Part shown: positions 1 through 48,201 of the stretch, piece by piece
How the letters are laid out: each line of letters opens with the position of its first letter
How positions within the stretch are numbered: position 1 is the stretch's first letter
DNA from: a virus
Taxonomy: Duplodnaviria; Caudoviricetes
Length of the DNA stretch: 48,201 bases
Strand: one strand, 5' to 3'
Virus record (IMG/VR): IMGVR_UViG_3300020138_000007
Span: 1 to 48,201 of that record
Translations under genes and position numbers: made by a program
The notes under the pieces: generated by a model
What the model saw: only the letters and a program-made list of their open reading frames with translations
What the model was told of the DNA's origin: nothing
The model's database searches: none

Positions 1-464
1 TTCATCTTGTTGCCGAGCCTACCGCGACGTTCACGAAGGAATACTTCGGGATGCTTCCGCCGGAAGCCGTCATGCTGGGGTGTACTCCCGACTACGACGC
101 ATACACCGGGAAGCAGAACATTCCACCGGAAACGACCGAACCTTTCCGGACTGGTGCTGGTCATATCCACGTCGGTTGGACGATGGGTGTCGATCCGTTG
201 GAAGAGGATCACTTCAAGATTTGCTGTGAGTTGGTCAAGCAACTCGATGCAGTCCTCTATCCACTTTCCCACACTTGGGATAGCGACACGAAACGTCGGA
301 CGCTCTACGGTAAGCGTGGCTCTTTCCGTCCGAAGTTCTATGGTGTCGAGTGGCGACCACTCTCGAATGCATATCTTCGTGAGGAGCGGACGATCCGGTT
401 GGTCTACCGTGCTGTCTTTGAGGCGACTCGTCTTTATTTCGATGGGGTGAAACTCTATGAATGA
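1..464 (+). CDS. phiEco32-like COOH-NH2 ligase type 2, 3' part
   Basis: LGCTPDYDAY, RTGAGHIHVG, RRTLYGKRGSFRPKFYGVEWRPLSN. In frame with the ORF starting at 47825. Confidence 0.9.
   Translation, partial: HLVAEPTATFTKEYFGMLPPEAVMLGCTPDYDAYTGKQNIPPETTEPFRTGAGHIHVGWTMGVDPLEEDHFKICCELVKQLDAVLYPLSHTWDSDTKRRTLYGKRGSFRPKFYGVEWRPLSNAYLREERTIRLVYRAVFEATRLYFDGVKLYE
2..127. repeat. 126-bp overlap with the window end (circular contig overlap)
   Basis: 2-127 is identical to 48076-48201. It lies inside a CDS, so it is an assembly overlap rather than a biological terminal repeat. Confidence 0.95.
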
Positions 465-639
465 GGAATATTGGGTGATAATCATTTGGCCCACTTTTGA
501 GGAAGCAGAAGTCGACAGTAAACACCCGACACAAACATCAGCCTCCGTGCGAGTGGTTCACTTGCAAGCATTGCATGACAATCAGACAATCAAATATGCA
601 ATCATGAAGAAGATCGAAGAAGGAGTTCTGGAACTTTGA
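457..639 (+). CDS. hypothetical protein (60 aa)
   Basis: Overlaps both neighbours in the operon. Confidence 0.6.
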   Translation: MNEEYWVIIIWPTFEEAEVDSKHPTQTSASVRVVHLQALHDNQTIKYAIMKKIEEGVLEL

Positions 640-1229
640 GCAAGAAAATCTATGTGGTCGGACGGGATACTTCCGTCGAATTTCTTTTTGAAGACAGAGG
701 ACACGAAGTCCACGCGGGCGATCTTCCGAACTGCGAGGTCGATCTTGTCGTCTTCACCGGAGGGTCGGACATCAATCCAGCACTCTATGGTGCACTGAAT
801 ATGGGAAGTTACGTGACAGAGTATTCGAAGCGTCGTGATACCTTCGAAGTCTCCGTCTATAAGAGGATGACCGAACTCGGTATCCCGAAGGCTGGCATCT
901 GCCGTGGCGGACAACTCTTCAATATCTTGAATGGCGGCAGCATGGTTCAAGATATCAAGGGGCACAACGGAGGAAACCATGAAGTATACCTCTACGATAC
1001 TCATGACCCTATAGGGAAGACCAATTCGTGTCATCATCAAATGATGATTCCGACAGAAGGGGTCGAGTTGATCGCATACTCGACCTATTCTGGGGGTAAG
1101 TGTCCAGAGGTCATCTACTACCCGGAGAACAAAGACCTCTGTTTCCAAGCCCATCCTGAATGGGGGCATGAGAACACGACGAGACTCTTCTTTCAATACA
1201 TTGACTCTTGCCTTGGAGTATCACTCTGA
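636..1229 (+). CDS. class I glutamine amidotransferase / peptidase C26-like gamma-glutamyl hydrolase
   Basis: FTGGSDINP, RRDTFE, GICRGGQ (catalytic Cys), NSCHHQ, FQAHPE (His-Glu). TTG start after AAGGAG. Confidence 0.9.
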   Translation: MSKKIYVVGRDTSVEFLFEDRGHEVHAGDLPNCEVDLVVFTGGSDINPALYGALNMGSYVTEYSKRRDTFEVSVYKRMTELGIPKAGICRGGQLFNILNGGSMVQDIKGHNGGNHEVYLYDTHDPIGKTNSCHHQMMIPTEGVELIAYSTYSGGKCPEVIYYPENKDLCFQAHPEWGHENTTRLFFQYIDSCLGVSL

Positions 1230-1702
1230 TGTCCATCCAAATCGCCAATCGCAGTCTGATGTGTTCTACACTCGTCTTCGGGTGCTTCTCTTATAATCCG
1301 AGCTTTGCATACCTCGTCAAAAATCTAAAGGACCAAATCACCGTAGCGAACAATCGTGACACCAAGGTTGTGTATTATAACCCGTACAGTCCCGACCACA
1401 GACAAGAGCGTCACGTCCTTGACGGGTACGACGTCAAGAAGTTCGCGTTCGCCGTCGGGACTGTGAAAAACAAATCTGACTTGAAGTATTTCAAGAAGTT
1501 GGGTTGGACTGTTGTTGGTCCTGACGAAGGGGTGCACAACCAGAAGAACTATACACACGTCTGGTTGGTGCACATCACCGTCCACGATCTCTTGAAAGAA
1601 CTCTCTCGATATGACGACGTGGGTCATCTCATCAAAGATGAAGGGGTCAAGAAAAAGAAAGCCCCCAAGAAAACGATGACCCTCAAGAAGGAAGCCGCAT
1701 GA
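1229..1702 (+). CDS. hypothetical protein, possible degenerate GNAT fold
   Basis: TGATG coupling to the upstream gene. C-terminal KNKSDLKYFKKLGWTVVG resembles GNAT motif B. Confidence 0.7.
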   Translation: MSIQIANRSLMCSTLVFGCFSYNPSFAYLVKNLKDQITVANNRDTKVVYYNPYSPDHRQERHVLDGYDVKKFAFAVGTVKNKSDLKYFKKLGWTVVGPDEGVHNQKNYTHVWLVHITVHDLLKELSRYDDVGHLIKDEGVKKKKAPKKTMTLKKEAA

Positions 1703-1824
1703 ACGTCGATCTACTCTGTCAGAACGACATAGAAGGGAGGAGTAACTACCGTGAACTACTCCGTCGTGTCGTCCTTCGACTCAAGAAAGAAAGGATATCG
1801 ACATGTGTGGTATCTGTGGGCTGA
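1699..1824 (+). CDS. small hypothetical protein (41 aa)
   Basis: ATGA overlap with the upstream stop. MNVDLLCQNDIEGRSNYRELLRRVVLRLKKERISTCVVSVG fills the gap. Confidence 0.45.
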   Translation: MNVDLLCQNDIEGRSNYRELLRRVVLRLKKERISTCVVSVG

Positions 1825-2747
1825 TCGGTCCGGGAATCATAGCTAAAGACCTCGAAGTCTTCACTGACCTCATGTGGGCCAACGGACTTCGGGGACCCCA
1901 TTCGACTGGACTCTTCGTCGTCACTCCCGGTGGACCTTACAAGAAAGAGAAGTTCAGGATGAAGAGGTCTTTGGGTCATTCGGTTGATTTCTTGATGAAT
2001 GACAGCCGAAACAAGATAGAGAATCGGATGATCCGTTCGATGTTTTCTCAACTCTTCATGGCTCATTCGAGGTGGGCGACGAAGGGAGAGATCACTGTCT
2101 CGAATGCCCATCCGTTCGACACGGGAACTCTGGTTTCTTGTCATAACGGAACCCTGACCGACAAGGAATACCAAGACAAGCGGATGACGGACTCTGAACT
2201 GATGTTCCGAGATATGGAAGATCGTGGGATCAAGGCTGTCCTTGAAGATTTGGATTGGGGTTCGGCCTACGCGATCTCGTCTTATAACAAGAGGACGAAC
2301 ATCCTTACTCTTGCAAGGAACTCACAGCGTCCACTCTTCTTCGGTGTCTCCAAGAGTCGAGCCGTCATGTATTATGCGTCGGAGTTGGAGGCTTTGGACT
2401 TCGTCGCGAGTCGAAACGGTATCAGTTTGAATCGATATGAAGTCGACCCCGACACGATGATTCAGTTCGACATCTCGAAAGTCTCTTCGAGTTCGACGTT
2501 CTGGAATACGACGGACATCGATACAAGCAAGCAGGGCTTCTACGAGATATCGAAATCGAACAAGACGAACACCGGAGTGGGTACGGAAGACACCCCTTGG
2601 AATGAAGAATTCTGCCTGTCGTGTGGGTCGATCTTGGTCGGTGATGAAATCAATAGGGCGGACAAGACGACGTTCAGGAATGAGACTTACTACACTTGCA
2701 GGCAGTGTGTCGCAGGCGAGGGTGGTGTGGACTGTACGGCTGTCTGA
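1803..2747 (+). CDS. class II (Ntn) glutamine amidotransferase with C-terminal Zn ribbon
   Basis: MCGICG (Cys2 nucleophile), RGPHSTG, HSRWATKG, NAHPF, HNGTL, TDSE. CLSC...CRQC at the C-terminus. Confidence 0.92.
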   Translation: MCGICGLIGPGIIAKDLEVFTDLMWANGLRGPHSTGLFVVTPGGPYKKEKFRMKRSLGHSVDFLMNDSRNKIENRMIRSMFSQLFMAHSRWATKGEITVSNAHPFDTGTLVSCHNGTLTDKEYQDKRMTDSELMFRDMEDRGIKAVLEDLDWGSAYAISSYNKRTNILTLARNSQRPLFFGVSKSRAVMYYASELEALDFVASRNGISLNRYEVDPDTMIQFDISKVSSSSTFWNTTDIDTSKQGFYEISKSNKTNTGVGTEDTPWNEEFCLSCGSILVGDEINRADKTTFRNETYYTCRQCVAGEGGVDCTAV

Positions 2748-2772
2748 CATAATGGAATGAAAGGAGACAATC

Positions 2773-3435
2773 GTGGCTTATGAAAAAATGCCATGCAAGT
2801 ATGATACCCTGAAAGACCTACAGGATCGTCTTCATGGTACTTACTGTCGGTATGACGGTAAGTTATACTACGTTACTGTCGAGTCGAAGGACGTCATCGT
2901 CCTGTATGATTCGGTATCTCAACGTCCGAAGCTAAACATCAATCCGTCTGATCCGAATTTCGACATCTCTTCTCTTGAGGTCGGTTATATGAACCTCGAC
3001 CAGAAAGAGATGGCACAGTTAGGCGTCGAGTCGAACGGTGGTGTCCTCTACCTCATGAGGTATCCACAACGTCGGTATCGGCAGGGAGTAACTCCAGAAT
3101 GTCTCTCTGCATACCGGATCGAGAACATGGATATCAGTCCGTTCAGGACGGGAAGCCTTCTACGAACGGCAGGATTCAGGAAGTCAATCGAAGGGGATTT
3201 CCCGAGTTTCAACGAAGCCTTGGACGACAAGTCGGCAGAAGTCGCACTCTCTCGTGATCTCGCTATCAAGAAGACAGACTCCGGTCTGGTCCTCGTCTAC
3301 TACAAGATGGTCAACATCGGATGGACTCTCCCCGGAGACAATATCGTGATGTTCAGAGGGACTCCACATGACTGGCTTTTCCAGAAAATTCTGGATGAAC
3401 ATCATATGTCCTATATTTGCAGGAGAGTGCAATGA
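2773..3435 (+). CDS. hypothetical protein in the amidoligase cluster
   Basis: GTG start after AAGGAG, 220 aa, ATGA overlap with the next gene. Confidence 0.8.
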   Translation: MAYEKMPCKYDTLKDLQDRLHGTYCRYDGKLYYVTVESKDVIVLYDSVSQRPKLNINPSDPNFDISSLEVGYMNLDQKEMAQLGVESNGGVLYLMRYPQRRYRQGVTPECLSAYRIENMDISPFRTGSLLRTAGFRKSIEGDFPSFNEALDDKSAEVALSRDLAIKKTDSGLVLVYYKMVNIGWTLPGDNIVMFRGTPHDWLFQKILDEHHMSYICRRVQ

Positions 3436-4493
3436 CTACTCTACGAACAGCCGTCGGTCAGTATTTTACCCTGACCAAACACAAGGGGGACTTCGGAATT
3501 GAGATCGAAACCGAAGTCAAGAAGCTCGAAGACTATCCTGATTCATTCTTCCGATCCAACAAAGACGGGATGACGGTACCTCCGTTCTCTGACTGGATCG
3601 TCCACTCTGATGGCTCTCTTCGTAACGTCGGGTATGAGTTCGTCTTTGACAGACCTAAGACTTTCGAAGAGTCCATCAAGGCTCTGGATGTTTTTGCAGA
3701 GGGGACGAGAGAAATCAAGTTTCTCAAGAATGCTCCGGCGACATCTGTCCATGTGCATGTCAATATGGCGGACGAAGAGTTGATCGTACTTGCGAACTTC
3801 CTGACTCTCTGGTCGATGTTCGAATCGATTCTTGTCAACTACTCTGGCGAGACGAGGAGGAGTAATCTCTTTGCCCTTCCCTTGAGGGTCGCAGAGGGGA
3901 ACCTCGTCTACATGAAGAAGGTGATTGATTGGGCCGGACGAAATCCCATGATGTTTCCTGCATCAGACAACGGAGCCAAGTATTCGGCCTTGAATATCGC
4001 TCGCCTCAGTATATTCGGGTCACTTGAGATCAGATCATTCAGGGGTGAGACGGACATCAACGAGATCAAGCGCTGGTTGTCGATCATCAATCAGGTACGG
4101 ATGTTCGCCAAGATACCCGGAATGACTCCGACAAAGATAATGGAAGAGGTGAAGGAAAATCGGTATGAATTTATCGAGAAGGTATTCGATAAGTTTACGT
4201 CGTCGATCAGGATGACAGTCCCAGAGACAAACTTCCTGTTCGACAAAAATCTCTGGTACGGGATGATTATGGCGACTGTCGTCGAAGATTGGGAAGAGTT
4301 TAATCGAGGCACTGAAATAAAAGAGAAAAAACCAAGAAGGAAATTTCCGGGGAGTCTTACAGTCACAACAATAACGCCTGACCTCCTCGTCGCGCCGATC
4401 AGTGAAGCCACTGTGGCTGAATACGAGAGTGGCTTCACTATAACAGAAACAGAAGAGACAGAAGAGGATAGCTATGATGACTTCGACGACTGA
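3432..4493 (+). CDS. putative amidoligase (Amidoligase_2, glutamine-synthetase-like fold)
   Basis: FGIEIETE, HSDGSLR...YEFV, SVHVHVN, RRSNLFA, KYSALNI, GSLEIRSFRG. Acidic tail; AGGAG RBS. Confidence 0.9.
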   Translation: MTTLRTAVGQYFTLTKHKGDFGIEIETEVKKLEDYPDSFFRSNKDGMTVPPFSDWIVHSDGSLRNVGYEFVFDRPKTFEESIKALDVFAEGTREIKFLKNAPATSVHVHVNMADEELIVLANFLTLWSMFESILVNYSGETRRSNLFALPLRVAEGNLVYMKKVIDWAGRNPMMFPASDNGAKYSALNIARLSIFGSLEIRSFRGETDINEIKRWLSIINQVRMFAKIPGMTPTKIMEEVKENRYEFIEKVFDKFTSSIRMTVPETNFLFDKNLWYGMIMATVVEDWEEFNRGTEIKEKKPRRKFPGSLTVTTITPDLLVAPISEATVAEYESGFTITETEETEEDSYDDFDD

Positions 4494-5364
4494 TCAGACC
4501 AAGAACTACATCCTCCGCAGGAGAGGGGTAGGAGAGAAGATCGGAGCGATGGAGGAATTCTCCGAGAAGGGACTGAAGGTCGTCCGTTCCGACAAGACTC
4601 TTCCACAGAATCCCGACTACGTATTCCGTTGGGGTACGACTGCCACCATCCCGATGGCAGACCAGACTGTCGTGGTAAATCCTGCTTCCGCGATCCATTG
4701 GGCTTATGATAAGAGGTCATCCCGAAAGCAGATGGCTGATCTTGGCCTTTCGATGAGGACTTGGATTGACTTCGCAGACCTCCTGACTTCTATGGAAAAT
4801 GGAGAGACCCCACCTTCGTCCAGTTGCCTCATCGTACGACCAGAACATCACATCCGTTCTCTTGACTTGAATGTCTGTCATTCAATCACAGAGACCTATA
4901 AGTCAACAAAGAAGTACGACAGGTATTATATTTCCGAATACATCAAGAAGGATGCAGAGTGGCGTGTCTTCGTCGTACAGGGTCGTGTCGTCGCTGTCGT
5001 CCAGAAGATTCCTGTCGATCCGAATGAAGTCTCATGGGGTTGTGTCGAGGAAGGACAGTTTCGATATGTCCCATGGAACGAATGGCCTCTCTTTGTCACA
5101 CAGAAGGCCGTACAGGCGTTTCTACTCTCGGGCTTGGACTTTGGTGCTGTCGATGTGATATCGCGTTCTACGGGCCTCCCTGACCCCGTGGCGTACGTCT
5201 TGGAGATCAACACCGCACCGGAATTGACTCCGTACTACATGAAGACGTTCGTCAAGTGCTTCGATTATATCATCGAGAACGGGAAGAATCAGCTTCCTAT
5301 CACGAACAACCAGACTTGGAAGCATTTCATCCACCCCGCCGTGTCGGACATGGCTGTCGTCTAA
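4474..5364 (+). CDS. ATP-grasp peptide ligase (RimK/YheCD-like)
   Basis: FRWG, NP..I....DK, ISEYI....EWRVFV, LDFGAVDVI, VLEINTAP. Confidence 0.9.
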   Translation: MMTSTTDQTKNYILRRRGVGEKIGAMEEFSEKGLKVVRSDKTLPQNPDYVFRWGTTATIPMADQTVVVNPASAIHWAYDKRSSRKQMADLGLSMRTWIDFADLLTSMENGETPPSSSCLIVRPEHHIRSLDLNVCHSITETYKSTKKYDRYYISEYIKKDAEWRVFVVQGRVVAVVQKIPVDPNEVSWGCVEEGQFRYVPWNEWPLFVTQKAVQAFLLSGLDFGAVDVISRSTGLPDPVAYVLEINTAPELTPYYMKTFVKCFDYIIENGKNQLPITNNQTWKHFIHPAVSDMAVV

Positions 5365-5377
5365 GAAGGAATATCAT

Positions 5378-6442
5378 ATGTGTGTCATCATTCACTTCAA
5401 GCCTAAGCAGATGATCGACAAGGAAGCCCTGTTCAACGCATGTGCAAATAACTGGCACTCGTATGGACTCGTGACTCGTGTCGACAAGAAGCTCGATATC
5501 GTCCGTAAAGTCCCGGAGAATGGAGAAGTCGATTCAGAGGAAATCTACAAACTCCTTCAAGACAACTTCAAGTACGACAGGTATCTACACGTCCGTCACA
5601 ACACGGCTGGCGAGACTTCTCTCGAAAATACCCATCCGTTTGACGTCTACTATGATCCCAAGACGGGCAATCAGGTCGTCTTCATGCATAACGGGACACT
5701 CTATGAATACAAGTCCCGGATAACAGAGACGAAGAACGGGGTGACTTCGACGAGAGACGACGATTCCGGACCGTCTGACACAAAGAACTTTGTCGATCAG
5801 GTTCTCATTCCATACACTGCTTCCGATTTCGGTGATGGTGCCGGAAGTATCGACAACATTCTTTATCGCAGAGTGATTTCGAAATTCTGGCCCACGACCG
5901 GAGCAAATCGTGGACTTCTTATCTCGAACAAGGGTGATTATACTCTTGGGTCATGGACGACGTACGGGAGTGACGAGAATCGACTGACCGTCTCTAACGA
6001 CGACTATTTCAGCAAGATCACCCGTGGTCCCGAATTCACTCGGAGGCGGGTTCGGGAAGAAGAAGAGAAGAAGAGGAAAGAGGCGGAGAGGCCGGTGATA
6101 AACACCTCATCCCTCAAGACAGGGGTCGCCCGATTTCGTGACTACGATGTTGAGAAGACTTACGATCTTTTCGAACTGAAAGAGACGATGGCAAACATCT
6201 TGGGAGATTGGGATGTCTGGGATAGGTCTGGCATGACTGCACTCGGATATGCAACGATGGACGAGATCGGTCAACTCTACGCAGACAAGAAGTCTTGCAT
6301 CCAAGTGATGGACCTCGTGTTCACCGAATTCACGAAGATGGCCAAGGAACTGGAAGAACTCGAAGAGAAGAAGGACAGGGGAGAAAAACTCATTGCTTCC
6401 CTGCAATCCACCATCAAGACCCTGAAGGAGAAGGCAGCATGA
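5378..6442 (+). CDS. second class II glutamine amidotransferase with C-terminal coiled coil
   Basis: MCVII (Cys2), NWHSYG, HVRHNTAG, NTHPF, MHNGTL, SDT. Confidence 0.88.
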   Translation: MCVIIHFKPKQMIDKEALFNACANNWHSYGLVTRVDKKLDIVRKVPENGEVDSEEIYKLLQDNFKYDRYLHVRHNTAGETSLENTHPFDVYYDPKTGNQVVFMHNGTLYEYKSRITETKNGVTSTRDDDSGPSDTKNFVDQVLIPYTASDFGDGAGSIDNILYRRVISKFWPTTGANRGLLISNKGDYTLGSWTTYGSDENRLTVSNDDYFSKITRGPEFTRRRVREEEEKKRKEAERPVINTSSLKTGVARFRDYDVEKTYDLFELKETMANILGDWDVWDRSGMTALGYATMDEIGQLYADKKSCIQVMDLVFTEFTKMAKELEELEEKKDRGEKLIASLQSTIKTLKEKAA

Positions 6443-7029
6443 GTCATATGAACACCGCCTACCAGAAGGACTGTTATCTGACTGACGAACTCTTTGAGAG
6501 GGAGAACGAGACATCTCCAGACTTTCTCGACTTCAAGAATCTCCAGAACATTCCGGTATTCGTCTATGACGACTGTATGGTAGGTTACAAAAACCACAAG
6601 CTACTCAAAGACTCTGTCTATCTTGGTGAGTCTTGGACATCGACGCAGTCGTTCGTCATGGAGAGGTCAGACATCGATTCTCCCGTTGTCTTTCACTACA
6701 ACGGACCGGGGGTATCGACAAAGAGGGTCTACGGCGAGGTCTTTCTACTGACACCGAAACAACTCTTGAGTCTCGACTTCCATATGGCGAACAACGAACT
6801 CTACAAGCGAGAGAAGAGGTTCGTCTGTCTTCTTGAACAGAAAATCAAAGACAACGTGAGGATGAAGCCCTCGCTGAAGTGTTGGATGTATTTAGGCAAC
6901 CCTGACTTCTGGGAAGATCGACAGACTGTGAGGATGTCGCCTAAAGAAACCAACAATCAGAGTGTCTGGATGTGGACAAGATCGACATTCGAGGACGAAA
7001 TCCCTAATTTCTTGAAGTCAAGGGGTTGA
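6439..7029 (+). CDS. gamma-glutamylcyclotransferase (GGCT/AIG2)-like protein, divergent active site
   Basis: VFVY....GYKNHKLL, YLGE, VYGEVF, L..LD, LYKR, CWMYL. ATGA overlap and AAGGAG RBS. Confidence 0.8.
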   Translation: MSHMNTAYQKDCYLTDELFERENETSPDFLDFKNLQNIPVFVYDDCMVGYKNHKLLKDSVYLGESWTSTQSFVMERSDIDSPVVFHYNGPGVSTKRVYGEVFLLTPKQLLSLDFHMANNELYKREKRFVCLLEQKIKDNVRMKPSLKCWMYLGNPDFWEDRQTVRMSPKETNNQSVWMWTRSTFEDEIPNFLKSRG

Positions 7030-7060
7030 CAAAGAAAAATTTTGTGGTACTTTATCTAAG
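7026..7060 (+). promoter_or_regulatory. sigma70-type promoter, TTGACA-N16-TACTTT with extended -10
   Basis: TTGACA at 7026-7031, TG at 7045-7046, TACTTTATCT at 7048-7057. Same motif at 10856 (+) and 42773 (-). Confidence 0.8.
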
Positions 7061-7225
7061 AGAGAAGTGACTTAAGGAATACCTTAGGTACAGTACCTTA
7101 AGACACAGAAGATTGAGAAGACAAGAGAAGGAAGAAGAGTAAGGGTGTTTAGCATAAGACACTCTTACTTAATCACTCACACTTAATCAATAATACTTAA
7201 GGTATTATACTTTAGGTATCAGAAG
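7061..7225. repeat. AT-rich non-coding element with ACYTWAG-like repeats; candidate replication origin
   Basis: 14-bp periodic acttaatcactcac/acttaatcaataat/acttaaggtattat/actttaggtatcag and a hairpin at 7139-7168. Paralogous to 42495-42745. Confidence 0.6.
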
Positions 7226-7233
7226 GAAAGTCC

Positions 7234-7491
7234 TTGAGGAAATTTAACAGAGATTACGTCTCACGACCTATGCGACGGTACGAGTATGCCCGTTGTGAAA
7301 TCTGTAATGCGACTGGTTCGTCAGAGATAGCTACACACGACGAAGACATCGGATCGGGTATCTTCTATATGACGGCCACCGGATTTATCTGTTCGGAGTG
7401 CGAACACCACCATAAAGAAATCATGTCTGATTGGGACATCATTGATGAACTCGACGAAGACGACATGATGTATGAGGAGTACGAAGAATGA
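7234..7491 (+). CDS. small Zn-finger protein with acidic tail
   Basis: CEIC...CSEC; first ORF after the promoter. Confidence 0.7.
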   Translation: MRKFNRDYVSRPMRRYEYARCEICNATGSSEIATHDEDIGSGIFYMTATGFICSECEHHHKEIMSDWDIIDELDEDDMMYEEYEE

Positions 7492-15986: not shown

Positions 15987-16159
15987 AAGACTACGAAAAG
16001 CTACTAATCAAGATCGTCAACGAGTTTGCTGACGACTACTCCGTCGAGGAGGTTCTCGACATTCTTTTCCCCGGACAGTCGTTTGGTGAAATCATGAACG
16101 ACGCTTTTAACGCAGGGCTTATCCCCAACGACATCATGGAGAACTTCATTAATGAGTAA
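15983..16159 (+). CDS. small acidic hypothetical protein (58 aa)
   Basis: MKDYEKLLIKIVNEFADD...; ATGA overlap with the upstream gene. Confidence 0.65.
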   Translation: MKDYEKLLIKIVNEFADDYSVEEVLDILFPGQSFGEIMNDAFNAGLIPNDIMENFINE

Positions 16160-16886
16160 GATCGTAGACACACTTTTCTCTTGGTTCACACCAATCGCTG
16201 CGCTTGGACTGGTGGGAGCAGCAGTCGTCATGGCTCCTGCCGGTCCACCGGCTGCGACTGAAAATGACATGATTCTCGCCTCTGTACAGGTGGAGAGGTA
16301 CTGTTCCGGTACAGTGATCGAGGATACTGATCTCTCCGACGGAAAGCAGATGACTGTCCTCTCTGCCAAGCACTGCCTGAATGGGGATCAGGGTGTCGGT
16401 TCCATCGTGATGGTGAATGTCCCACAGACGATGATGAATGAGTACTACAATGATCGGGCAATCAAGATGATCGTCACGAAGGTCTCCGAAGAGTCCGACC
16501 TGATCGAGATGCAGGCGATCAAGAAGGACGAAGGTCTTGATATTCCGTCCGTCCCGATCCATCATGGTATTCCCAAGATCGGTGATGAAGTCTGGTCTAT
16601 CGGGTTTCCTCTCGGTGGCCCGAAGGCGTTTAACGCCGGTTTCCTCTCCTATGTCGTCGATATGAAGGACATCACTCATCTCGACCATTGTATCTGGGAT
16701 TCGACGACCTGTCTTTATCAGCAGGTTGCTGTCCCTGTAGATGGTGGTAATTCCGGTGGTGGACTCTTTGTGAAGTCGAGTGATGGATATCGTCTTATGG
16801 GTGTCCTGACTGGTAAGGATACTCGTTCGTCACAGCTTGCCTATTTCACACCTCTGGATGAGGTCCAGACTTTCTTGGGAGTATAA
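16152..16886 (+). CDS. trypsin-like serine protease with N-terminal signal/anchor
   Basis: CSGTVI, LSAKHC (His), ESDL (Asp), IGFPLG, GGNSGGGLF (Ser); hydrophobic N-terminus. Confidence 0.9.
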   Translation: MSKIVDTLFSWFTPIAALGLVGAAVVMAPAGPPAATENDMILASVQVERYCSGTVIEDTDLSDGKQMTVLSAKHCLNGDQGVGSIVMVNVPQTMMNEYYNDRAIKMIVTKVSEESDLIEMQAIKKDEGLDIPSVPIHHGIPKIGDEVWSIGFPLGGPKAFNAGFLSYVVDMKDITHLDHCIWDSTTCLYQQVAVPVDGGNSGGGLFVKSSDGYRLMGVLTGKDTRSSQLAYFTPLDEVQTFLGV

Positions 16887-17129
16887 ATGGCAGAACGAAA
16901 ACGGGACTATCGTAAAGAGTACGACGAATATCAGGGAAAGCCCGAACAGATACGTCGTCGTGCCCAGAGGAATAAAGCCAGACGTGAACTCGGACTGAAG
17001 AAGGGTGATCCCCGAGAGGCCGGACACGTCGGACGTAATCGGAAGGGGAAGCTCGGATCAAAAGTCCGGGCTATCTCTCGAAAGAGCAATCGAAAGGATC
17101 AGCCTAAGCGAAATGGGAAAGAAGATTAA
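16887..17129 (+). CDS. small basic HNH-like protein (probably degenerate)
   Basis: RDYRKEY...RRAQRNKARR...KGDPREAGH...SRKSNR, a common phage HNH-related pattern. Confidence 0.65.
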   Translation: MAERKRDYRKEYDEYQGKPEQIRRRAQRNKARRELGLKKGDPREAGHVGRNRKGKLGSKVRAISRKSNRKDQPKRNGKED

Positions 17130-17364
17130 ACGACCAATCACATATGTAAAATGGGTCGATTCAGCCTCTTATTCTGACCAACAGTGGTACTCTTTGAGTG
17201 ATCATGACCATGGGATAGCTACTATCGAGGCAGTCGGCATTCTTGTACATGAAGATAAAAACTTCATTTCTCTGGTCATGAATATCTCGAAGCAAGATAG
17301 TGTTGTGGGTGATATGGCGATACCGAAGGTCGCCATCCTGAAAAGGAAGGTGCTTAGTGCCTAG
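17113..17364 (+). CDS. hypothetical protein
   Basis: YVKWVDSA...VGIL...IPKVAI; plausible small beta protein. Confidence 0.7.
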   Translation: MGKKIKRPITYVKWVDSASYSDQQWYSLSDHDHGIATIEAVGILVHEDKNFISLVMNISKQDSVVGDMAIPKVAILKRKVLSA

Positions 17365-17650
17365 AGGTAATACCGAAGGGTTCCGGGCGGAGAATAAGTT
17401 TAAGGTCCCACAGAAGATGTGGGGTTCTTGGACACTCGTCGCCCGGCATGTCTTCAACAAGACCTATGAGAGTATGATCAAGAACCCGGAGTTCTTCCTT
17501 CATACTGATATCATAAGAGCAGGAGAAACTCCTTCTTCTGTTCACTGGAAGGTCACCGCATGGAATGCCGCATTCACGGCAGCATCGATTACTTCTCGTG
17601 GTGAACGACACATCCTTGCCGATCTGACTAACAAAGTAAAGGGACGATGA
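17357..17650 (+). CDS. hypothetical protein
   Basis: Overlapping operon ORF containing HWKVTAWNAAF. Confidence 0.7.
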   Translation: MPRGNTEGFRAENKFKVPQKMWGSWTLVARHVFNKTYESMIKNPEFFLHTDIIRAGETPSSVHWKVTAWNAAFTAASITSRGERHILADLTNKVKGR

Positions 17651-17889
17651 TGAAGAATGAATCCTATGGTGTGATCGAAGTCTTTACCGATTGGGACGAC
17701 GCCGTGATGTGGGCAGAAGCCACGATCCGTGAGAAGGCCAAGGAAGGTTGGGAACTCTCACAGGGTTCTGGTGTCCAATACGTCAACAACCAATGGCGTG
17801 TCGGTCTGGGCTTCGATAAGGAAGGAGGCGTCAATCCTGACCTCGCAGAAGGGATTGAGACTCTGATCGAGGGTGACACGATTGGCTAA
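17647..17889 (+). CDS. hypothetical protein
   Basis: ATGA coupling. Confidence 0.7.
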   Translation: MMKNESYGVIEVFTDWDDAVMWAEATIREKAKEGWELSQGSGVQYVNNQWRVGLGFDKEGGVNPDLAEGIETLIEGDTIG

Positions 17890-17918
17890 GAAGCCTCTTC
17901 ACGTAATCGGAGATTACT

Positions 17919-18101
17919 ATGGCGCGTAAACCGCTTTACGGTAAGATTCTTGTGTCTCGATCATTTCCTACACAGGTCGAGGCACAAGACTTCGCGAAGG
18001 AATACAAGGCACAATATAGACAGGCCGACATGTCAATCAAATATGACATCAATCGGACAGCAGCTTCTGAATGGACAGCGACGGTATATGTCAAAATCTG
18101 A
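17919..18101 (+). CDS. hypothetical protein (60 aa)
   Basis: GGAG RBS. Confidence 0.7.
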   Translation: MARKPLYGKILVSRSFPTQVEAQDFAKEYKAQYRQADMSIKYDINRTAASEWTATVYVKI

Positions 18102-18465
18102 CGTTCCAAAAATTCTAATCTGTGGTGGGCGTGATTACGCTGATTGGTTTAGATTCAGAAATACTCTTGAGAAAATAATCAATGAGAGAGTTTGGGTGTC
18201 TGAGCCAGACGAATTTGGAAATTATCTTCCGAGAGTCGTGATCATTTCTGGAGCAGCAAAGGGTGCTGACCAGATGGCAATTGAATTCGATGAGTATCCA
18301 GCAGATTGGAAGAAATATGGAAAACAAGCTGGTCCAATCAGAAATCAACAGATGTTAGACGAAGGTCAACCTGATTTAGTTGTGGCTTTTCCCGGTGGAA
18401 GTGGGACAAAAGATATGATTCATCGAGCAAAGAAAGCAGGAGTCGAAGTAATTGAAGTCCATTAA
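18088..18465 (+). CDS. YspA/DUF2493-type SLOG protein
   Basis: KILICGGRDY, IISGAAKGAD, YPADWKKYGKQAGPIRNQQML, VAFPGGSGTKDMI. Confidence 0.88.
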   Translation: MSKSDVPKILICGGRDYADWFRFRNTLEKIINERVWVSEPDEFGNYLPRVVIISGAAKGADQMAIEFDEYPADWKKYGKQAGPIRNQQMLDEGQPDLVVAFPGGSGTKDMIHRAKKAGVEVIEVH

Positions 18466-18880
18466 ATCAATTTATCTAATCGGGAGTCTACGGAATGAAG
18501 AAATTCCTGAACATGCTGAAACGCTACGATCCTTGGGTCTTGATGTGTTCGATGACTGGTTTGCAGCCGGACCTGAGGCCGACGATTACTGGAAGAAATA
18601 TGAGACGGGCCGTGGGAATGGGTATAAGGAAGCTCTACGAGGGTATGCGGCTCGCCATGTATTCTCTTTTGACAAGTATCATCTTGATCGTTGCGACGCT
18701 GCTATACTTGCTCTTCCTGCTGGCCGTTCTGGCCACCTTGAGCTTGGCTATGTTGCTGGGTGCGGTAAACCGACCTTTATTCTACTTGATGGACAAGACT
18801 CACGATTTGACGTGATGTACCAGTTCGCGACAGAGGTCTTTTTCGATAAGGAGGAAATAATTGCATACTTTAAGAGTTGA
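18452..18880 (+). CDS. nucleoside 2-deoxyribosyltransferase-like (NDT superfamily) N-glycosidase
   Basis: IYLIGS, D...LDRCDA.IL, GRSGHLELGY...GKP; TTG start after AGGAG. Confidence 0.8.
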   Translation: MKSIKSIYLIGSLRNEEIPEHAETLRSLGLDVFDDWFAAGPEADDYWKKYETGRGNGYKEALRGYAARHVFSFDKYHLDRCDAAILALPAGRSGHLELGYVAGCGKPTFILLDGQDSRFDVMYQFATEVFFDKEEIIAYFKS

Positions 18881-19023
18881 TAATATTAGAATTCATTCTA
18901 TGTATGAATTCATTAACCATCCATATTTCCAAATTACAGATGATAATACTGAATATATCAATATCACTTTCGATCAACTAGAACAATTATACACATGGGC
19001 CGCATCCATCCACGAGGAAAAAA

Positions 19024-19395
19024 GTGATAACAGCAAATGAAGGACAGAAATATAAGGCAGATGCAGGAAAACTCCGAGCAGGACTCGTCTTCGAAGGAAT
19101 GCCTAGATCACTGCTTATGCTCGCAGCAGTCCTCTCTTACGGCGCACAGAAATATGAAGCCAACTCATGGAAGAAAGTCGCAGGAGGGCGATACTTTGAC
19201 GCTAAATTCCGACATCTTTTGGAGTCCTTGGCGGGTCTAGGGGAGTTCGATGACGAGTCGGGCATCCTTCATGAGGCTCATGAGTTGTGTAACTCTATGT
19301 TCATCCTAGAACAAAAGCTTGAAGAACTCTCTCCAGAAGAATTCAAGAAACTCTTGAAGTTTAACAAACCTCCTCAAGATCATAAAGGAAAATAA
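19024..19395 (+). CDS. dATP/dGTP diphosphohydrolase-like (DUF5664)
   Basis: KADAGK.R..L, VLSYGAQKY..NSWK, RY.DA..RH, DDESGILH.AH..CN.MF. Confidence 0.85.
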   Translation: MITANEGQKYKADAGKLRAGLVFEGMPRSLLMLAAVLSYGAQKYEANSWKKVAGGRYFDAKFRHLLESLAGLGEFDDESGILHEAHELCNSMFILEQKLEELSPEEFKKLLKFNKPPQDHKGK

Positions 19396-27694: not shown

Positions 27695-28180
27695 TTAAAA
27701 CTCCAATTCTTGAAACTTCAATGTCTTAATGAAGGAGGACTCGACTTGACGATATCCACGTTTCTTATAGAACTCATCAAGCGGAGGAGATACCCCCGGA
27801 AGATAGGCTCCCTGTACATAATGGCAACCGACACGTCTGGCCCAATCCTCATAGGCGGAGTATATCAGGAGAGAGGCTCTGGAACCACGATGTTCGGGGT
27901 CAACCCACCAGCCCAATTCTGTCGCGATTTTCACCGACGAGAAGACTGGTTCATTGGCTACCCCGACAATAAACCCAACAGGTTTGTCATCATGAAGAGC
28001 GAGAATGATTATACTATCCATCTGGTTCCCGGATATGATATCCCGAAGGACCTTCTCGCCCTTGATTGTGTCGAACTTCATAGTGTTATATGGGGACGCC
28101 CTATGAAAATTTCTGGCGAAACGCATACAGACTGGTATATCTTCGAGTGTCGCGAGACGTAGATACTTCTCTACTGTCAC
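27695..28180 (-). CDS. GNAT acetyltransferase in the virion module
   Basis: LRLATLEDIP, GFIVG, WWVDPEHRG, FYKKRGY. GTG start with AGGAGG RBS overlapping the upstream stop. Confidence 0.85.
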   Translation of the reverse strand: MTVEKYLRLATLEDIPVCMRFARNFHRASPYNTMKFDTIKGEKVLRDIISGNQMDSIIILALHDDKPVGFIVGVANEPVFSSVKIATELGWWVDPEHRGSRASLLIYSAYEDWARRVGCHYVQGAYLPGVSPPLDEFYKKRGYRQVESSFIKTLKFQELEF

Positions 28181-30318
28181 GGTAGCTGACCTCCTGTGTC
28201 GAACGTGCTCCATCCGATTATCTTGAATGGGGAATCACCGTCTGATTCAAAACGAAGCTGGAAGGATCGACCTTTCCCCCTTAGTTTCACACGTCGTATG
28301 ATGTATTCAGAATCTTTCTCTTGTACAGGATAGAGCCATTGAGGGGTCGTAACTCTCAATCCATAATCCCACAATCCTTTAAGGATTACCTGTCCTTCAG
28401 CGATTTTCTGGAGAACGACGGCAATGGGTGTCGAATTGAATGGTCGTAGGATTTCACCCCTGATACGATAACCAGACTCGAAGAACGAGAGGTAACTCGA
28501 CCCACCAATCGTCTCCCAATCTATAGGATTAGTAACCTGATTGGAGTACGTGAGGGACGGAGTATCTCCAGTCACCAGTGTAGTATACTTGAAGAGTTCA
28601 ATGTTGGGTGTATACGAAGCGCTCTCAATCATGACTTCGTCAGACGCATTATTAGTGACGACTATCTCTGAGTTGTCGACGACCTCTTCCAGAAATTCTA
28701 CTCTTTTCTGTCCAGATAACGAGACCAACCCGACTACCCGAGGTGATTTGTCAGTCGAGATCGTGTGGGTGTAGAATGCCCGTGAAGAGACGTTGAACTC
28801 CAAGATTCGATTATACGTAAAGGGGTTTGCATCATCTAGGTCGGAATACAACCACTGGACAATACGATCTTTCTTGTTATAGACACCTTTAATGTAGGGT
28901 CGATTGACAGACGGAACATCATCAATGACAGACTGGATGGTAGTACGACTGGCATTCTGGACCTGATAGTAGACACCAATCTGGTCTTTCGTCAGAGCAT
29001 AGAGAGCATCGTAATTCCACCAGAGGAGTGAGTTGTCGACGTTTACGATAGAGAGATGAGAGACCCCTCCAATCGTCGATACATATTCGACAGAGTAGTC
29101 AGTCGCACGGAACGGACCATTCTCGGTCCCCCTGATTGCAAAGATACCGTTTGTACCGATGACAATCAAGGCGTCATTAATGACTTGGAGTGATACGACT
29201 TTCGATATCAATGGTATTGAAATGATACCGCCATCACTGTCGACCAGATCAAAGATAGACTCCGAGGTCGGGTCATTGACTTGATAACACTTCCCAAACT
29301 GATCGTCAGACTCGATGATCTGGGAGAAATAGATCTTGTCAGAGTACCTAGACGATGAGATACCCGCATAAAATATCCTACCGGCGTAGAAAGCCACACA
29401 AGAGGGGCGAGACGACCCGGCGGACAGACTAGGTAGGTTAGGAATACCTGACTCGGTCGAACGATCTATATTCCAAGCATTGTAGATATAATGGCCATTC
29501 GGAGCAGGAGTATTCCCGAGGGTTATCTGTGAGGGACCGATCTGTCCTTCTTTATAGTCGGCGTCAAATCTAGCGAGTTCATAGCCATTTTTATAGACCC
29601 ACCAGATGTCTGCATTTGATGGAAAGTCGGCTCGAACTTGGTCCCAAGCAGGAAGGACTGGACGGGGTTGTCCACTTCCTGCAACGATAGCACTGACGTA
29701 CCAACCTTGATTATAGAGATTGTACTTGTGGATATCAGTTAGGGTAGATGGGCGCTCATCGATCTTTAGTCCGTCCTCAAGACGTTCAAAGTCCCTGACT
29801 TCAATCGTGATGGTGGAGACCTCAATCGTATCTGTGTCTTTGTGATATTCGACCGCAATCGGATCGCACATCGGATGGCAGATGAAGAGAAAGCCTTTAC
29901 CAAAGGTGAACTGGCAGGGTTGTTGACTGACGAGAGACAGATCAGTCACAGTCTTGTAGTCATCCAGATTGATCGAAAAATTTTTGAGATTAGAAGATAC
30001 CGCTACATCACCGACTTCGAAAAAGACGATGCTTGAACCCACCTGTTGGACAAGGAAAGAAACAGTCCCGTCACCACCTACAGAGTCCCATTTGAATTCA
30101 ACGAAGACTCCCGGACTGTCGGTCAAGTCACCGATTAGGTTTTCCTGATACTCAGGCTCGTAGTCAATACCATTCCGACGAGAAACGACACCTAACTCAG
30201 AGAATACAACGTTATCTCCGTCCGTCACCGCATTCTCAGGGAAATTAAGAGCGGTGTACTCGGTCACAAGACCTTGTATGAACGAATTCTCGACTGTAAT
30301 TACCGCTCCTCTAGCCAT
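28177..30318 (-). CDS. tail tubular protein B / nozzle
   Basis: 713 aa beta-rich protein: NSFIQGLVTE, FYAGRIFYAG, KLRGKGRS.QLRFES; position after the adaptor. Confidence 0.8.
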   Translation of the reverse strand: MARGAVITVENSFIQGLVTEYTALNFPENAVTDGDNVVFSELGVVSRRNGIDYEPEYQENLIGDLTDSPGVFVEFKWDSVGGDGTVSFLVQQVGSSIVFFEVGDVAVSSNLKNFSINLDDYKTVTDLSLVSQQPCQFTFGKGFLFICHPMCDPIAVEYHKDTDTIEVSTITIEVRDFERLEDGLKIDERPSTLTDIHKYNLYNQGWYVSAIVAGSGQPRPVLPAWDQVRADFPSNADIWWVYKNGYELARFDADYKEGQIGPSQITLGNTPAPNGHYIYNAWNIDRSTESGIPNLPSLSAGSSRPSCVAFYAGRIFYAGISSSRYSDKIYFSQIIESDDQFGKCYQVNDPTSESIFDLVDSDGGIISIPLISKVVSLQVINDALIVIGTNGIFAIRGTENGPFRATDYSVEYVSTIGGVSHLSIVNVDNSLLWWNYDALYALTKDQIGVYYQVQNASRTTIQSVIDDVPSVNRPYIKGVYNKKDRIVQWLYSDLDDANPFTYNRILEFNVSSRAFYTHTISTDKSPRVVGLVSLSGQKRVEFLEEVVDNSEIVVTNNASDEVMIESASYTPNIELFKYTTLVTGDTPSLTYSNQVTNPIDWETIGGSSYLSFFESGYRIRGEILRPFNSTPIAVVLQKIAEGQVILKGLWDYGLRVTTPQWLYPVQEKDSEYIIRRVKLRGKGRSFQLRFESDGDSPFKIIGWSTFDTGGQLP

Positions 30319-41960: not shown

Positions 41961-42487
41961 CCGAAGACCTCGCGGTTTAGAGAAAGACGAATTCTGTCGA
42001 GATCATCCTCGATCTCTGACTGATCCTTGAACATACGGTCGGCTTCCCGCTTGATCGATTCCTTCGTAGGACGACCCACAGGAGATTTCTCAGGCTTGAG
42101 GGAATCAAGGATGGCACGGTTGGCCTGTAGAGAACCTCTGTCTTTCGGGTCTGCGGCGATCTGATGGAGCCTCCGAGTGGCATCGGCAGAGAGTTTCTGT
42201 CGTAGCTCTTCTCGAATCTCCGAGAGGTAATCGACGAACCAAGAACAGGAGAGGAGACGTTTCCAGTGGGGCCATCCACCGAAATACTTCTCGGCGAAGT
42301 AATACTCCGAGAGGTCGGACTCTTCGAGATAGAGACGACGAAGAGAGGGATAGGTGACTCCGTCGACTTCATGGTCTTCAGGCTTGAGTGTGTAGAGGAC
42401 TCTAGACTTGTCTGAGTCAGACATTTCAAAGAAGATTGCCTTGAGGAGCCAAGTACCTGAGGCATTCTTAAAGACCTTACTATCCAT
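41957..42487 (-). CDS. terS: probable terminase small subunit
   Basis: First gene of the late arm: SLRRLYLE..D..EY.FA..YFGGW.HWKRL, VGRPTK. Confidence 0.75.
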   Translation of the reverse strand: MDSKVFKNASGTWLLKAIFFEMSDSDKSRVLYTLKPEDHEVDGVTYPSLRRLYLEESDLSEYYFAEKYFGGWPHWKRLLSCSWFVDYLSEIREELRQKLSADATRRLHQIAADPKDRGSLQANRAILDSLKPEKSPVGRPTKESIKREADRMFKDQSEIEDDLDRIRLSLNREVFG

Positions 42488-42494
42488 GTTGTGT

Positions 42495-42740
42495 CCTTTC
42501 TTTAAGATACTATACCTTAGGTATTAATACTCTAGGTAAGATAATATTGACTGAGTGATATAGACTTAGAGTTCTTATTACTTAAGTCATTATTACTCTA
42601 GCTAATAGATAAAGAGAATGAATTAATCATATACCTCATGACCGAGTTCTTAAAGACAGATTACTTCTGCTAAACACAACAAGCTTACTACATGATCACT
42701 GTGTCTTAAGGTATAGTATCTTTATCTAACTACCTTTATA
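42495..42740. repeat. AT-rich non-coding element paralogous to 7061-7225
   Basis: Shares TACCTTAAGACACAG, GTGTTTAGCA and ATCACTCA in the same order on the - strand. Confidence 0.6.
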
Positions 42741-42773
42741 AGATAAAGTAACATATTTTTGGTGATTTGTCAA
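42738..42773 (-). promoter_or_regulatory. sigma70-type promoter of the structural arm
   Basis: On the - strand: TTGACA (42773-42768), N17, TACTTTATCTTA, with extended -10 TG. Confidence 0.8.
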
Positions 42774-42779
42774 GTGGTA

Positions 42780-43380
42780 AAATAAAGAAAAGTGAAAATA
42801 GCGATAATTTCTCTGAGAAAATTTCGAGGTGCCATTCCCTTAATCACCACCCCACCCCGATCCCCCTTGGCCGGGGGCCACCCACCCCTAAATATACAGC
42901 ATAGAATCTTTTCACGTCGTCACCATACCTTATGGTCTGATGCATGAAGTATAGCCTTGGTTATATTAGCCCTTTCTTAGATTCAAACTATTGAATGTTT
43001 TGGTCGTACACCACGACGACCTAACATGTGGTAATCTATTACCTCTCTCCCCTTCCCGAACAACACCTTTTCCAGTCACCTTTAGATACCGTCTATCCCT
43101 CTCTTTCGGACATAGATCACTCTAGAAGCGTGCCTCGTTTCCATGATGCCCAATACCAGCGTCGTCTACTCCCTTTCTATGGCCGTCTATGGCCGATCTA
43201 GAGCATATCGTCTTTTCAGACTTTCCAGTTTCCTGCCCAAATGTGGCAGACTTTTCCTGCCCCTGCCACAAAAAGACCTTATTTCATGTCGTTCCTGCCT
43301 CATTCGTGCCACATTTCTAGGGTCTACTCTCCCTTGTCCCGAGCGGCATTCCGTAGGCGTTCCCACGTCGGCGAAGGACT
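42780..43380. other. probable physical genome ends / terminal-repeat region
   Basis: Non-coding, between the divergent arms and upstream of terS; C-rich tract at 42837-42888. Inferred from architecture only. Confidence 0.5.
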
Positions 43381-46560: not shown

Positions 46561-46809
46561 ATGAATCCAATCAAATCTGCCGTCTCGTGGGTCATGAATG
46601 TCATCGCGAGAGACAACGAATACTGTGACGATCTTGCAATCTACAAGGGTGCAAGAATCAGGACGAAATACGGGATGGGTGAAGTCGTCGGGGGGTCATT
46701 CTCCGTGAAGCTTGACCGTCCGGTGGGAGGTCGTCATGAGAACAACCGCACATGGTCATTTAACATCGATGCAATGCGTCTAGTGGAAAAGGGTGATACG
46801 AATGCTTGA
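46561..46809 (+). CDS. hypothetical protein, SH3-like
   Basis: AAGGAG RBS; KGARIRTKYGMGEVV...SVKLD. Confidence 0.65.
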   Translation: MNPIKSAVSWVMNVIARDNEYCDDLAIYKGARIRTKYGMGEVVGGSFSVKLDRPVGGRHENNRTWSFNIDAMRLVEKGDTNA

Positions 46810-47713
46810 CCTCAACATCGAAGCTGAAAGAAAGGCTTTCGAAGAGGCTTCCTACCACGCAAGGACGATGGCGGGGACGAACTTCTGTCTCGTGATGCGT
46901 CAGGAAGATGGAAGCCTGACTGTGCATCCTCGTCCGAACCAGCCATGTCAGGGTGGAGAGATGAGGAAGTACGAGACGTCCCACCCCGGTGATTGCACTC
47001 GTCCGAACGACCCCCGTCCCAATGATCTGAAATACCCGTTTCCATCGGGAACTCCAGAGGCAGTCTCGATCCACTGGAATTCAAACTACCTTTCAGATGA
47101 GTTCTTCAACGACCTCATCGACTTCTCCCCGTACCGAAAGTTATTCACCCCTAATAGTGTCAGGAATATCTATCGGGGAGATAACTCGGTCCAAGGATCG
47201 ATCTTCCTGAACACAGATGTCGATTCGACGGCCTTCGTGAACTTCTTGCAATTCGTAGGGACTGTAGGAAATCTGAGCCGTGTCGAGAGATACTATGCCC
47301 TGCTGGATTTCGTCGAACCAGAAGAAGCCATGGCTGCACTCTATCTTGACGTGGGACAATTGAGTCAGTCTGTGCAAGGCTACCCGTATTACTTCTCGAC
47401 CTATGTTGACACTCGTCGACTTCTCGAGGGGGATTTCCGTGATCTTACCGGGGGGACACTCAGAAATAGATTCGACTACAACCGTCCAGAGGTCCAAGAC
47501 CTCTTCAAGGTCGAATATCCTACCGGAGTCAAACCCAAACCGGAAGATTCCTTCGTCTACGTCTGCCAGACCAAGGGTCTTGTGAAGACTGAAGCTATTG
47601 AATGGGGTGAAGGGAAGTACAAGACCCAATTCAGTAGACCGAAATACGACGTGAAGGAATATGCTAAAATCCTCCGTGAATTCCTACATAAGCATGAGGG
47701 GAAAAAGGCGTGA
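46802..47713 (+). CDS. hypothetical protein (about 303 aa) just upstream of the ligase cluster
   Basis: Long ORF with genome-typical codon usage. Confidence 0.8.
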   Translation: MLDLNIEAERKAFEEASYHARTMAGTNFCLVMRQEDGSLTVHPRPNQPCQGGEMRKYETSHPGDCTRPNDPRPNDLKYPFPSGTPEAVSIHWNSNYLSDEFFNDLIDFSPYRKLFTPNSVRNIYRGDNSVQGSIFLNTDVDSTAFVNFLQFVGTVGNLSRVERYYALLDFVEPEEAMAALYLDVGQLSQSVQGYPYYFSTYVDTRRLLEGDFRDLTGGTLRNRFDYNRPEVQDLFKVEYPTGVKPKPEDSFVYVCQTKGLVKTEAIEWGEGKYKTQFSRPKYDVKEYAKILREFLHKHEGKKA

Positions 47714-47824: not shown

Positions 47825-48201
47825 ATGGATATCTTGATCGGGACTGATCCCGAACTCTTTGTGAAGAACGACAAGGACGAATTCGTCTCTGCACATGATC
47901 TCATCCCCGGAACGAAGGACAATCCCTATCTCGTAGGCGGTGGTGCCGTCCAAGTCGATGGTGTGGCGGCGGAATTCAACACGAATCCGGCGTCGTCGGA
48001 AGATGAATTCCTTGAGAACATCAATCGTGTACGGACACGTCTTAACGAGATGGTTCAGGAAGTAAACCCTTCCTATCATCTTGTTGCCGAGCCTACCGCG
48101 ACGTTCACGAAGGAATACTTCGGGATGCTTCCGCCGGAAGCCGTCATGCTGGGGTGTACTCCCGACTACGACGCATACACCGGGAAGCAGAACATTCCAC
48201 C
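47825..48201 (+). CDS. phiEco32-like COOH-NH2 ligase type 2, 5' part (continues across the junction)
   Basis: ATG at 47825 after GAAAGG. Reads MDILIGTDPELFV...IPGTKDNP...VQVDGVAAEFNTNPA; GxDPE and QxDxVxxEFN are family motifs. Confidence 0.9.
   Translation, partial: MDILIGTDPELFVKNDKDEFVSAHDLIPGTKDNPYLVGGGAVQVDGVAAEFNTNPASSEDEFLENINRVRTRLNEMVQEVNPSYHLVAEPTATFTKEYFGMLPPEAVMLGCTPDYDAYTGKQNIP
48076..48201. repeat. 126-bp overlap with the window start
   Basis: Identical to 2-127. Confidence 0.95.

Follow-up and report, generated by a model that had tools for sequence, protein, structure and literature searches.

A phiM6-type amide-bond module in a Zobellviridae-like phage genome: a C26-or-GGCT rule among 55 loci and a probable fourth GS/GCS-fold component

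Genes for building and breaking amide bonds form a known module of phages such as phiEco32, RIO-1, PA11 and phiM6. In their passages on PSA-HP1, Duhaime et al. (2017) list both synthesis and degradation genes as a 'peptidoglycan modification cassette' and also name phiEco32, 7-11, PA11, tf, MR299-2, LUZ24, PaP3 and CW02 (PMC5498523); table rows in PMC3890496 give the gene order in LUZ24-like phages. For phiM6, a peptide-bond segment of seven open reading frames (ORFs), in common with PA11 and RIO-1, has been described and peptidoglycan modification proposed (PMC6256558), and the functions are still to be explored according to the relevant passage of PMC10580990. Our full-text literature search, which left most subscription journals outside its coverage, found no biochemical or genetic characterisation of the module. 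Here we describe a copy in the IMG/VR virus record IMGVR_UViG_3300020138_000007, the window being the whole stretch of 48,201 nucleotides that was analysed. The block is a member of this known module, and of its rarer phiM6 type: it has both ligases with their motifs, an ATP-grasp ligase and a class II glutamine amidotransferase (GATase) in one operon, an intact C26 hydrolase, and a position on the upstream side of the primase/helicase. This analysis adds a rule by which each locus keeps either C26 or an intact gamma-glutamylcyclotransferase (GGCT), a degenerate GGCT in the window, and a candidate fourth protein of the glutamine synthetase/gamma-glutamylcysteine synthetase (GS/GCS) fold. Our preferred, though tentative, reading is that the block encodes a one-way cytoplasmic assembly line with glutamate as a temporary carrier.

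The same gene set, namely C26, both class II GATases, protein X, both ligases, the ATP-grasp enzyme and a long GGCT, occurs at 25–47% identity in phiM6 (MH700630, genes 80-70) and in RHph_N3_13, RHph_N3_19 and RHph_I3_11, where the primase/helicase follows. The second GATase is the rare element: among 50,697 phage records it matches only four, which belong to phiM6 and three RHph phages. The window differs from this group in several respects. Its type 2 ligase comes first, immediately behind a 303-aa gene, whereas the phiM6-type ligase follows the GATase; its GGCT lacks the Glu that phiM6 and RHph_N3_13 keep; it has two orphan ORFs but no HNH insert; and its genome is 48 kb with a Cobavirus-like terminase, as opposed to 68 kb.

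The window corresponds to an entire circular phage contig, in which bases 2–127 duplicate 48076–48201, giving a circle of 48,074 bp; the terminal overlap comprises 126 exact bases, and base 1 is T against A at 48075, either an assembly edge or a variant. Once the 303-aa gene is counted, the amide-bond block comprises the following eleven genes, about 8.3 kb or 17% of the circle:

46802..47713 (+): 303-aa module protein; predicted remote GS/GCS (Dop/PafA-like) fold without ligase motifs; invariant Cys49
47825..48201 (+): COOH-NH2 ligase type 2, 5' part; phrog_3815 E 8e-36; D-P-E and QVDG..E motifs conserved
128..464 (+): COOH-NH2 ligase type 2, 3' part; phrog_3815 E 3e-37; HxH, R and ExR conserved
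457..639 (+): 60-aa ORF; no profile match; relatives in 0 of 115 loci
636..1229 (+): peptidase C26/class I GATase, predicted gamma-glutamyl hydrolase; PF07722 E 4e-18; Cys89-His173-Glu175
1229..1702 (+): 157-aa orphan ORF; no Pfam, PHROG or NCBIfam match; probably an insert in the module
1803..2747 (+): class II (N-terminal nucleophile, Ntn) GATase, core type; PF13522 E 8e-12; N-terminal Cys2; C-terminal CxxC..CxxC
2773..3435 (+): core protein X, 220 aa; phrog_11055; predicted SH3/Tudor-like N-terminal barrel; conserved G71, R96 and R100
3432..4493 (+): Amidoligase_2 (GS/GCS-type ligase); phrog_7469 E 5e-43; ExE, D, E, HxH and ExR intact
4474..5364 (+): ATP-grasp ligase, RimK-like; phrog_2599 E 6e-23; R122, E162, D227, E244 and N246 intact
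5378..6442 (+): second class II GATase (GATase_4-like); PF13230 E 9e-8; N-terminal Cys present
6439..7029 (+): long GGCT-fold protein, likely inactive; PF06094 E 2e-8; Met116 for the catalytic Glu, YDD for YGT

From 47825 across the junction to 7029 the genes span 7,279 bp, or 15.1% of the circle, and six of their nine junctions overlap, the others being 13, 25 and 100 nt long, all on the plus strand. The initial annotation had given this stretch as 15% of the genome, as we find, and as 7.4 kb, a length that counts the terminal overlap twice. It listed genes that are indeed present in order and mostly translationally coupled, but overlooked the 60-aa ORF at 457–639 and the 303-aa gene at 46802–47713, which opens the block and belongs to the module. 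Profile matches agree with its calls of a COOH-NH2 ligase type 2, a C26/class I GATase, two class II GATases, an Amidoligase_2 and an ATP-grasp ligase. Its GNAT label for the ORF at 1229–1702 was not supported: no match was found in Pfam, PHROG or NCBIfam and no homologue in 115 related loci, and a model with pLDDT 0.38 reached a TM of only 0.35–0.40 to GNATs. The last gene has the GGCT fold that was ascribed to it (PF06094 E 2e-8), but its residues speak against activity.

This protein aligns weakly with human GGACT (3jub/3jud, E 0.03–0.06), in agreement with the family alignment, and lacks the motifs of an active GGCT, with Met116 at the catalytic Glu of GGACT and YDDC where YG(T/S)L is expected; judged by these residues, it is likely inactive. 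The catalytic role of this Glu in GGACT is consistent with the E-to-Q variant 3jud. The Glu is present in all 32 stand-alone GGCTs, whereas among the long GGCTs located 3' of a second GATase it is gone in nine of 15 and kept in six, including phiM6 and RHph_N3_13. In all 14 loci examined for this arrangement the long GGCT follows the second GATase.

The catalytic residues of all three ligases and all three GATases are intact, and they are conserved in the four enzymes with about 100 homologues each: the eight of Amidoligase_2 in 100–110 of 110 homologues, the five of the ATP-grasp enzyme in 104–109 of 110, each member of the C26 triad in 95 of 97, and R90, N115, G116 and D130 of the core GATase each in 105 of 108. 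Among the second-type GATases, read by eye, a Cys follows the start residue in 15 of 15. Matches to several reference families fall short of their cut-offs. The type 2 ligase, a 237-aa ORF that starts at 47825, crosses the circle junction and stops at 464, matches PF14395 below cut-off with one half; Amidoligase_2 scores 20.4 bits against PF12224 (cut-off 22); the ATP-grasp enzyme, nearest to the RimK family, matches TIGR00768 under cut-off (E 2e-9); and the NCBIfam family nearest to C26, gamma-glutamyl-CDP-amidate hydrolase, lies far below cut-off. Protein X, modelled as a Tudor/KOW-like barrel with two near-invariant Arg residues, is likely a partner of Amidoligase_2. Three loci without a stand-alone X (L014:11432-12979, L020:11913-13373 and L024:14159-15853) have an Amidoligase_2 with an N-terminal extension of 190–230 aa; the extensions of L014 and L020 are related to one another (E 2e-6) and not detectably to X.

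Among the 50,697 phage records, the type 2 ligase has matches in 312, Amidoligase_2 in 305 and C26 in 62. We pooled 118 loci, chosen mainly by type 2 ligase likeness (the best 80 of the 312 viral matches), excluded VPs20 and two copies of the window's own record, and labelled the genes of the remaining 115 with iterated profiles. Fifty-five loci with at least 2.5 kb of upstream and at least 1.5 kb of downstream flank were kept, and 60 with short flanks were dropped. Within these 55, the type 2 ligase (by construction) and Amidoligase_2 are present in all, the ATP-grasp enzyme and the core GATase in 54 each, X in 51, C26 in 48, an intact GGCT in 20 and the second GATase in seven. C26 occurs without intact GGCT in 35 loci, intact GGCT without C26 in seven and both in 13, whereas no locus lacks both (Fisher p 3.8e-4, unchanged on 52 clusters at 60% identity). 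The seven loci without C26 show 13–34% Amidoligase_2 identity and occupy about five places on a FastTree tree without support values; the chance of meeting GGCT in five independent draws at 20/55 is about 0.006. The window obeys the rule, having kept C26 and lost the GGCT Glu. Two loci, L032 and L102, have a gene order identical to that of the window, at 29–59% identity. All 17 'genome' matches of the type 2 ligase (L102–L118) lie on contigs of metagenome-assembled genomes, ten of them of 45–54 kb, and are probably binned phage genomes rather than bacterial copies.

The 303-aa family is present in 48 of the 55 loci. The top two PDB matches of its structural model are Dop and PafA, with weak Z and 5–6% identity; to judge from the model, the protein is a probable fourth GS/GCS-fold component and a predicted remote relative of the module ligases. 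In an alignment of 31 family sequences, no invariant or near-invariant column belongs to the metal/ATP motifs ExE, HxH and ExR, and on this basis we do not class it as an active ligase. The family diverges fast, has an invariant Cys49 and includes a homologue of 36% identity in RHph_N3_13. An upstream protein of about 300 aa in Zobellviridae is related to it (hhalign probability 67%, E 5e-5, plus fold matches) and represents another subfamily, with conserved C, R, E and H. In six loci (L007, L023, L025, L026, L031 and L034) the type 2 ligase occurs twice, once in a pair with a 303-aa-type gene, and this pair may move as a unit.

PuuD, a C26 enzyme, and BtrG, a GGCT, exemplify two families that strip from an amine the gamma-glutamyl group attached to it by a partner ligase, and GGCT requires the free alpha-amine of glutamate. 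Since every module keeps C26 or an intact GGCT, and the window's GGCT has decayed while C26 is kept, removal of gamma-glutamyl may be a required release step, and the interchange of the two enzymes suggests a required pathway step rather than a reversible switch or an optional eraser. Starting from the observed gene set, gene order and motifs, the loss of the GGCT Glu and the rule itself, we infer a series of steps whose order, like the assignment of the ligases, is conjectural throughout. One GS/GCS-type ligase would put gamma-glutamyl on an amine, the ATP-grasp enzyme would add an amino acid, the core class II GATase would feed glutamine-derived ammonia to the other ligase, capping a carboxylate as an amide, and C26 (an intact GGCT in other phages) would cleave the gamma-glutamyl carrier and free the product. 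The 303-aa protein and X might select or hold the substrate or pass the product on, and a further, optional round of trimming or amidation could fall to the second GATase and its dead GGCT-fold partner. As the product we would expect a small amide-capped peptide or amine that arises early in infection and favours the phage, either free or fixed to a host acceptor.

The initial annotation had proposed instead a reversible system and had considered the combination of writers and erasers peculiar to this version. Both kinds of genes are, however, listed for PSA-HP1, phiM6 has C26 and GGCT, and both erasers occur in 13 of the 55 loci; moreover, one of the proposed erasers in the window is probably inactive, and loci devoid of both are not found. 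A reversible tag would also amount to a futile cycle, because a single operon couples the writers to the remover and the PSA-HP1 copy, according to the passage on it in PMC7082346, is expressed immediately upon infection. The annotation's placing of the cluster with those of phiEco32-, LUZ24- and PA11-type phages agrees with our comparison of neighbourhoods, and its statement that the product is unproven with our literature search.

We favour the one-way carrier line over peptidoglycan editing, protein tagging, nitrogen recycling and DNA modification, with a confidence that stays somewhat short of even. Several points weigh against it. Neither the analysis nor the literature found yielded a substrate or product, 60 of the 115 loci were lost to short flanks, the tree carries no support values, and the sample leans to Zobellviridae-like phages because it was picked by type 2 ligase likeness. 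Class II GATases can be gamma-glutamyl hydrolases themselves (EgtC, Dug3), and C26 and GGCT may thus be less essential than the counts suggest. Finally, words for gamma-glutamyl or oxoproline metabolites are absent from the main text of one HP1 virocell multi-omics paper (PMC11170926).

It is possible, though doubtful, that the module edits peptidoglycan stem peptides, amidating them and adding extra peptide links on lipid II or the cytoplasmic UDP-MurNAc-peptide, to block superinfection; this would be compatible with the carrier chemistry if the precursor were the acceptor. Hosts are known to amidate precursors with a GATase and a ligase and to branch them with ATP-grasp enzymes, and the hosts of module-bearing phages cover Proteobacteria and Bacteroidota, a range that fits, as these phyla have the gamma-D-Glu-meso-diaminopimelate stem in common. 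The papers that propose the editing all cite Iyer 2009 and/or Hardies 2013. GGCT, however, is unable to cyclise D-Glu in the stem, where an acyl group blocks the alpha-amine, and no Mur-ligase, membrane or peptidoglycan-binding domain was detected in the module proteins by Pfam, NCBIfam or hydropathy; no clear membrane segment was seen, the top 19-residue hydropathy being 1.87 in Amidoligase_2 and at most 1.4 in the others. The passages in which the editing is proposed (PMC5498523, PMC6256558 and PMC10580990) report no experiment, and the receptors of phiM6 are lipopolysaccharide and the porin RopA1 (PMC6256558).

Reversible tagging of a protein of the host or the phage, similar to pupylation or to glutamylation by RimK, with the 303-aa protein as a Dop/PafA-like adaptor or deamidase and X docking on the target, appears unlikely. 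It draws on the Dop and PafA matches, the nearness of the ATP-grasp enzyme to RimK, the Tudor/KOW-like barrel of X with its two near-invariant Arg residues, and the fast divergence of the 303-aa family, as a target-binding subunit might show; neither a Pup-like gene nor a proteasome link was found. Bolder still, and distinctly less probable, is the idea that the 303-aa family is a new cysteine-dependent enzyme of the Dop/PafA fold, which would move a ligase-made peptide onto a host protein or other acceptor, a pupylation-like conjugation in hundreds of lytic phages from Zobellviridae to Crassvirales.

We consider it improbable that these are auxiliary nitrogen or glutathione metabolism genes that supply the virocell with recycled glutamate and ammonia. 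Sequence searches of Pfam, NCBIfam and the PDB matched none of the enzymes to host GS, GshA or GshB, from which they are too distant, and two phage-only core proteins, the 303-aa family (48 of 55 loci) and X (51 of 55), would be superfluous for simple recycling. Nitrogen metabolism was put forward for Phage-ZRK32 from whole-phage growth effects, in passages that leave single genes untouched (PMC10945688). Synthesis of a modified nucleotide or hypermodification of phage DNA, with nucleotides among the targets suggested by the initial annotation, is highly improbable: in 52 of the 55 loci the primase/helicase does come shortly after the module, and the window has other nucleotide-metabolism genes, but the strong avoidance of restriction sites in the genome disfavours this, and Pfam, PHROG and NCBIfam revealed no domain for DNA binding or base modification in the module.

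CCWGG (70.4 expected), CGATCG (22.5 expected) and CTGCAG (6.3 expected), as well as GCCGGC, are wholly missing from the genome, and palindromes of six bases have an observed/expected ratio (O/E) of 0.64, compared with 1.01 for other words. GANTC is underrepresented (O/E 0.59–0.70), a depletion presumably tied to CcrM methylation. These sites may point to host restriction and methylation systems, and an alphaproteobacterial host is plausible. The contig is 99% complete (CheckV) and encodes a T7-like primase/helicase, located at 8828 just downstream of the block, a family A polymerase and podophage-type structural genes. The terminase has 59–62% identity to those of the roseophages CRP-5, ICBM2, P12053L and SIO1 (Cobavirus-like) and the polymerase 51–52% to those of RHph_N3_19 and PA11-like phages, and we therefore regard the genome as Zobellviridae-like.

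Elsewhere in the genome, an acidic 85-aa CxxC..CxxC ORF (7234–7491) lies 3' of the module and has homologues in 18 other loci, including the same position in phiM6 and RHph_N3_13. The intergenic regions 7029–7240 and 42487–42800 have short words in common (cttaggta/cttaaggtat and ctttatctaa), possibly a phage promoter before the replication and early genes, as judged from the words without a chance control. The end of the replication arm (16152–19395) holds a trypsin-like serine protease (MarP family, weak match), phrog_289, and genes resembling nucleoside deoxyribosyltransferase and dATP/dGTP pyrophosphohydrolase. An acetyltransferase (27695–28213, minus strand; phrog_1249, E 2e-25) is situated amid tail and internal virion genes.

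The module takes up 15–17% of a small lytic genome and is kept by more than 300 sequenced phages of distant families and hosts, and no product has been identified since the 2009 prediction, as far as literature searches reach. The copy itself is of a known kind, but two results ease testing: the C26-or-GGCT rule tells which single gene to inactivate for trapping an intermediate, and the upstream gene, judged by its fold, would contribute a fourth GS/GCS-like component that has an invariant cysteine. A phage-made peptide or tag, if that is what the module produces, would represent a new route of host takeover or counter-defence.

Among known phage systems, the Zobellviridae cassettes of RIO-1/PSA-HP1, PA11/TC6, CW02 and Klyazma resemble the window in having the type 2 ligase, X, Amidoligase_2, the ATP-grasp enzyme, a class II GATase, C26 and/or GGCT, and the related upstream protein of about 300 aa. 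They differ in that they lack the pair of second GATase and long GGCT and that their upstream protein is of the other subfamily. The phages IME267 (phiEco32-like), Clew-6 (LUZ24-like), and phi14:2 and cr108_1 (Crassvirales) all have both ligases, the ATP-grasp enzyme and a class II GATase, with GGCT in the first three and C26 in cr108_1; their gene orders differ from the window, IME267, Clew-6 and cr108_1 have two tandem upstream proteins, and the two Crassvirales lack a stand-alone X. Compared with PafA/Dop of the Pup system, the 303-aa protein shows only the weak Z and low identity given above and is devoid of the ligase motifs. In NCBIfam searches, module proteins match PuuD at E 0.007 and EgtC at E 0.002, none above the family cut-offs. 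In PuuA/PuuD, BtrJ/BtrG and EgtA/EgtC, a ligase that adds gamma-Glu is paired with a C26, GGCT or Ntn remover; the module is like these pairs in its working only, and has three ligases instead of one.

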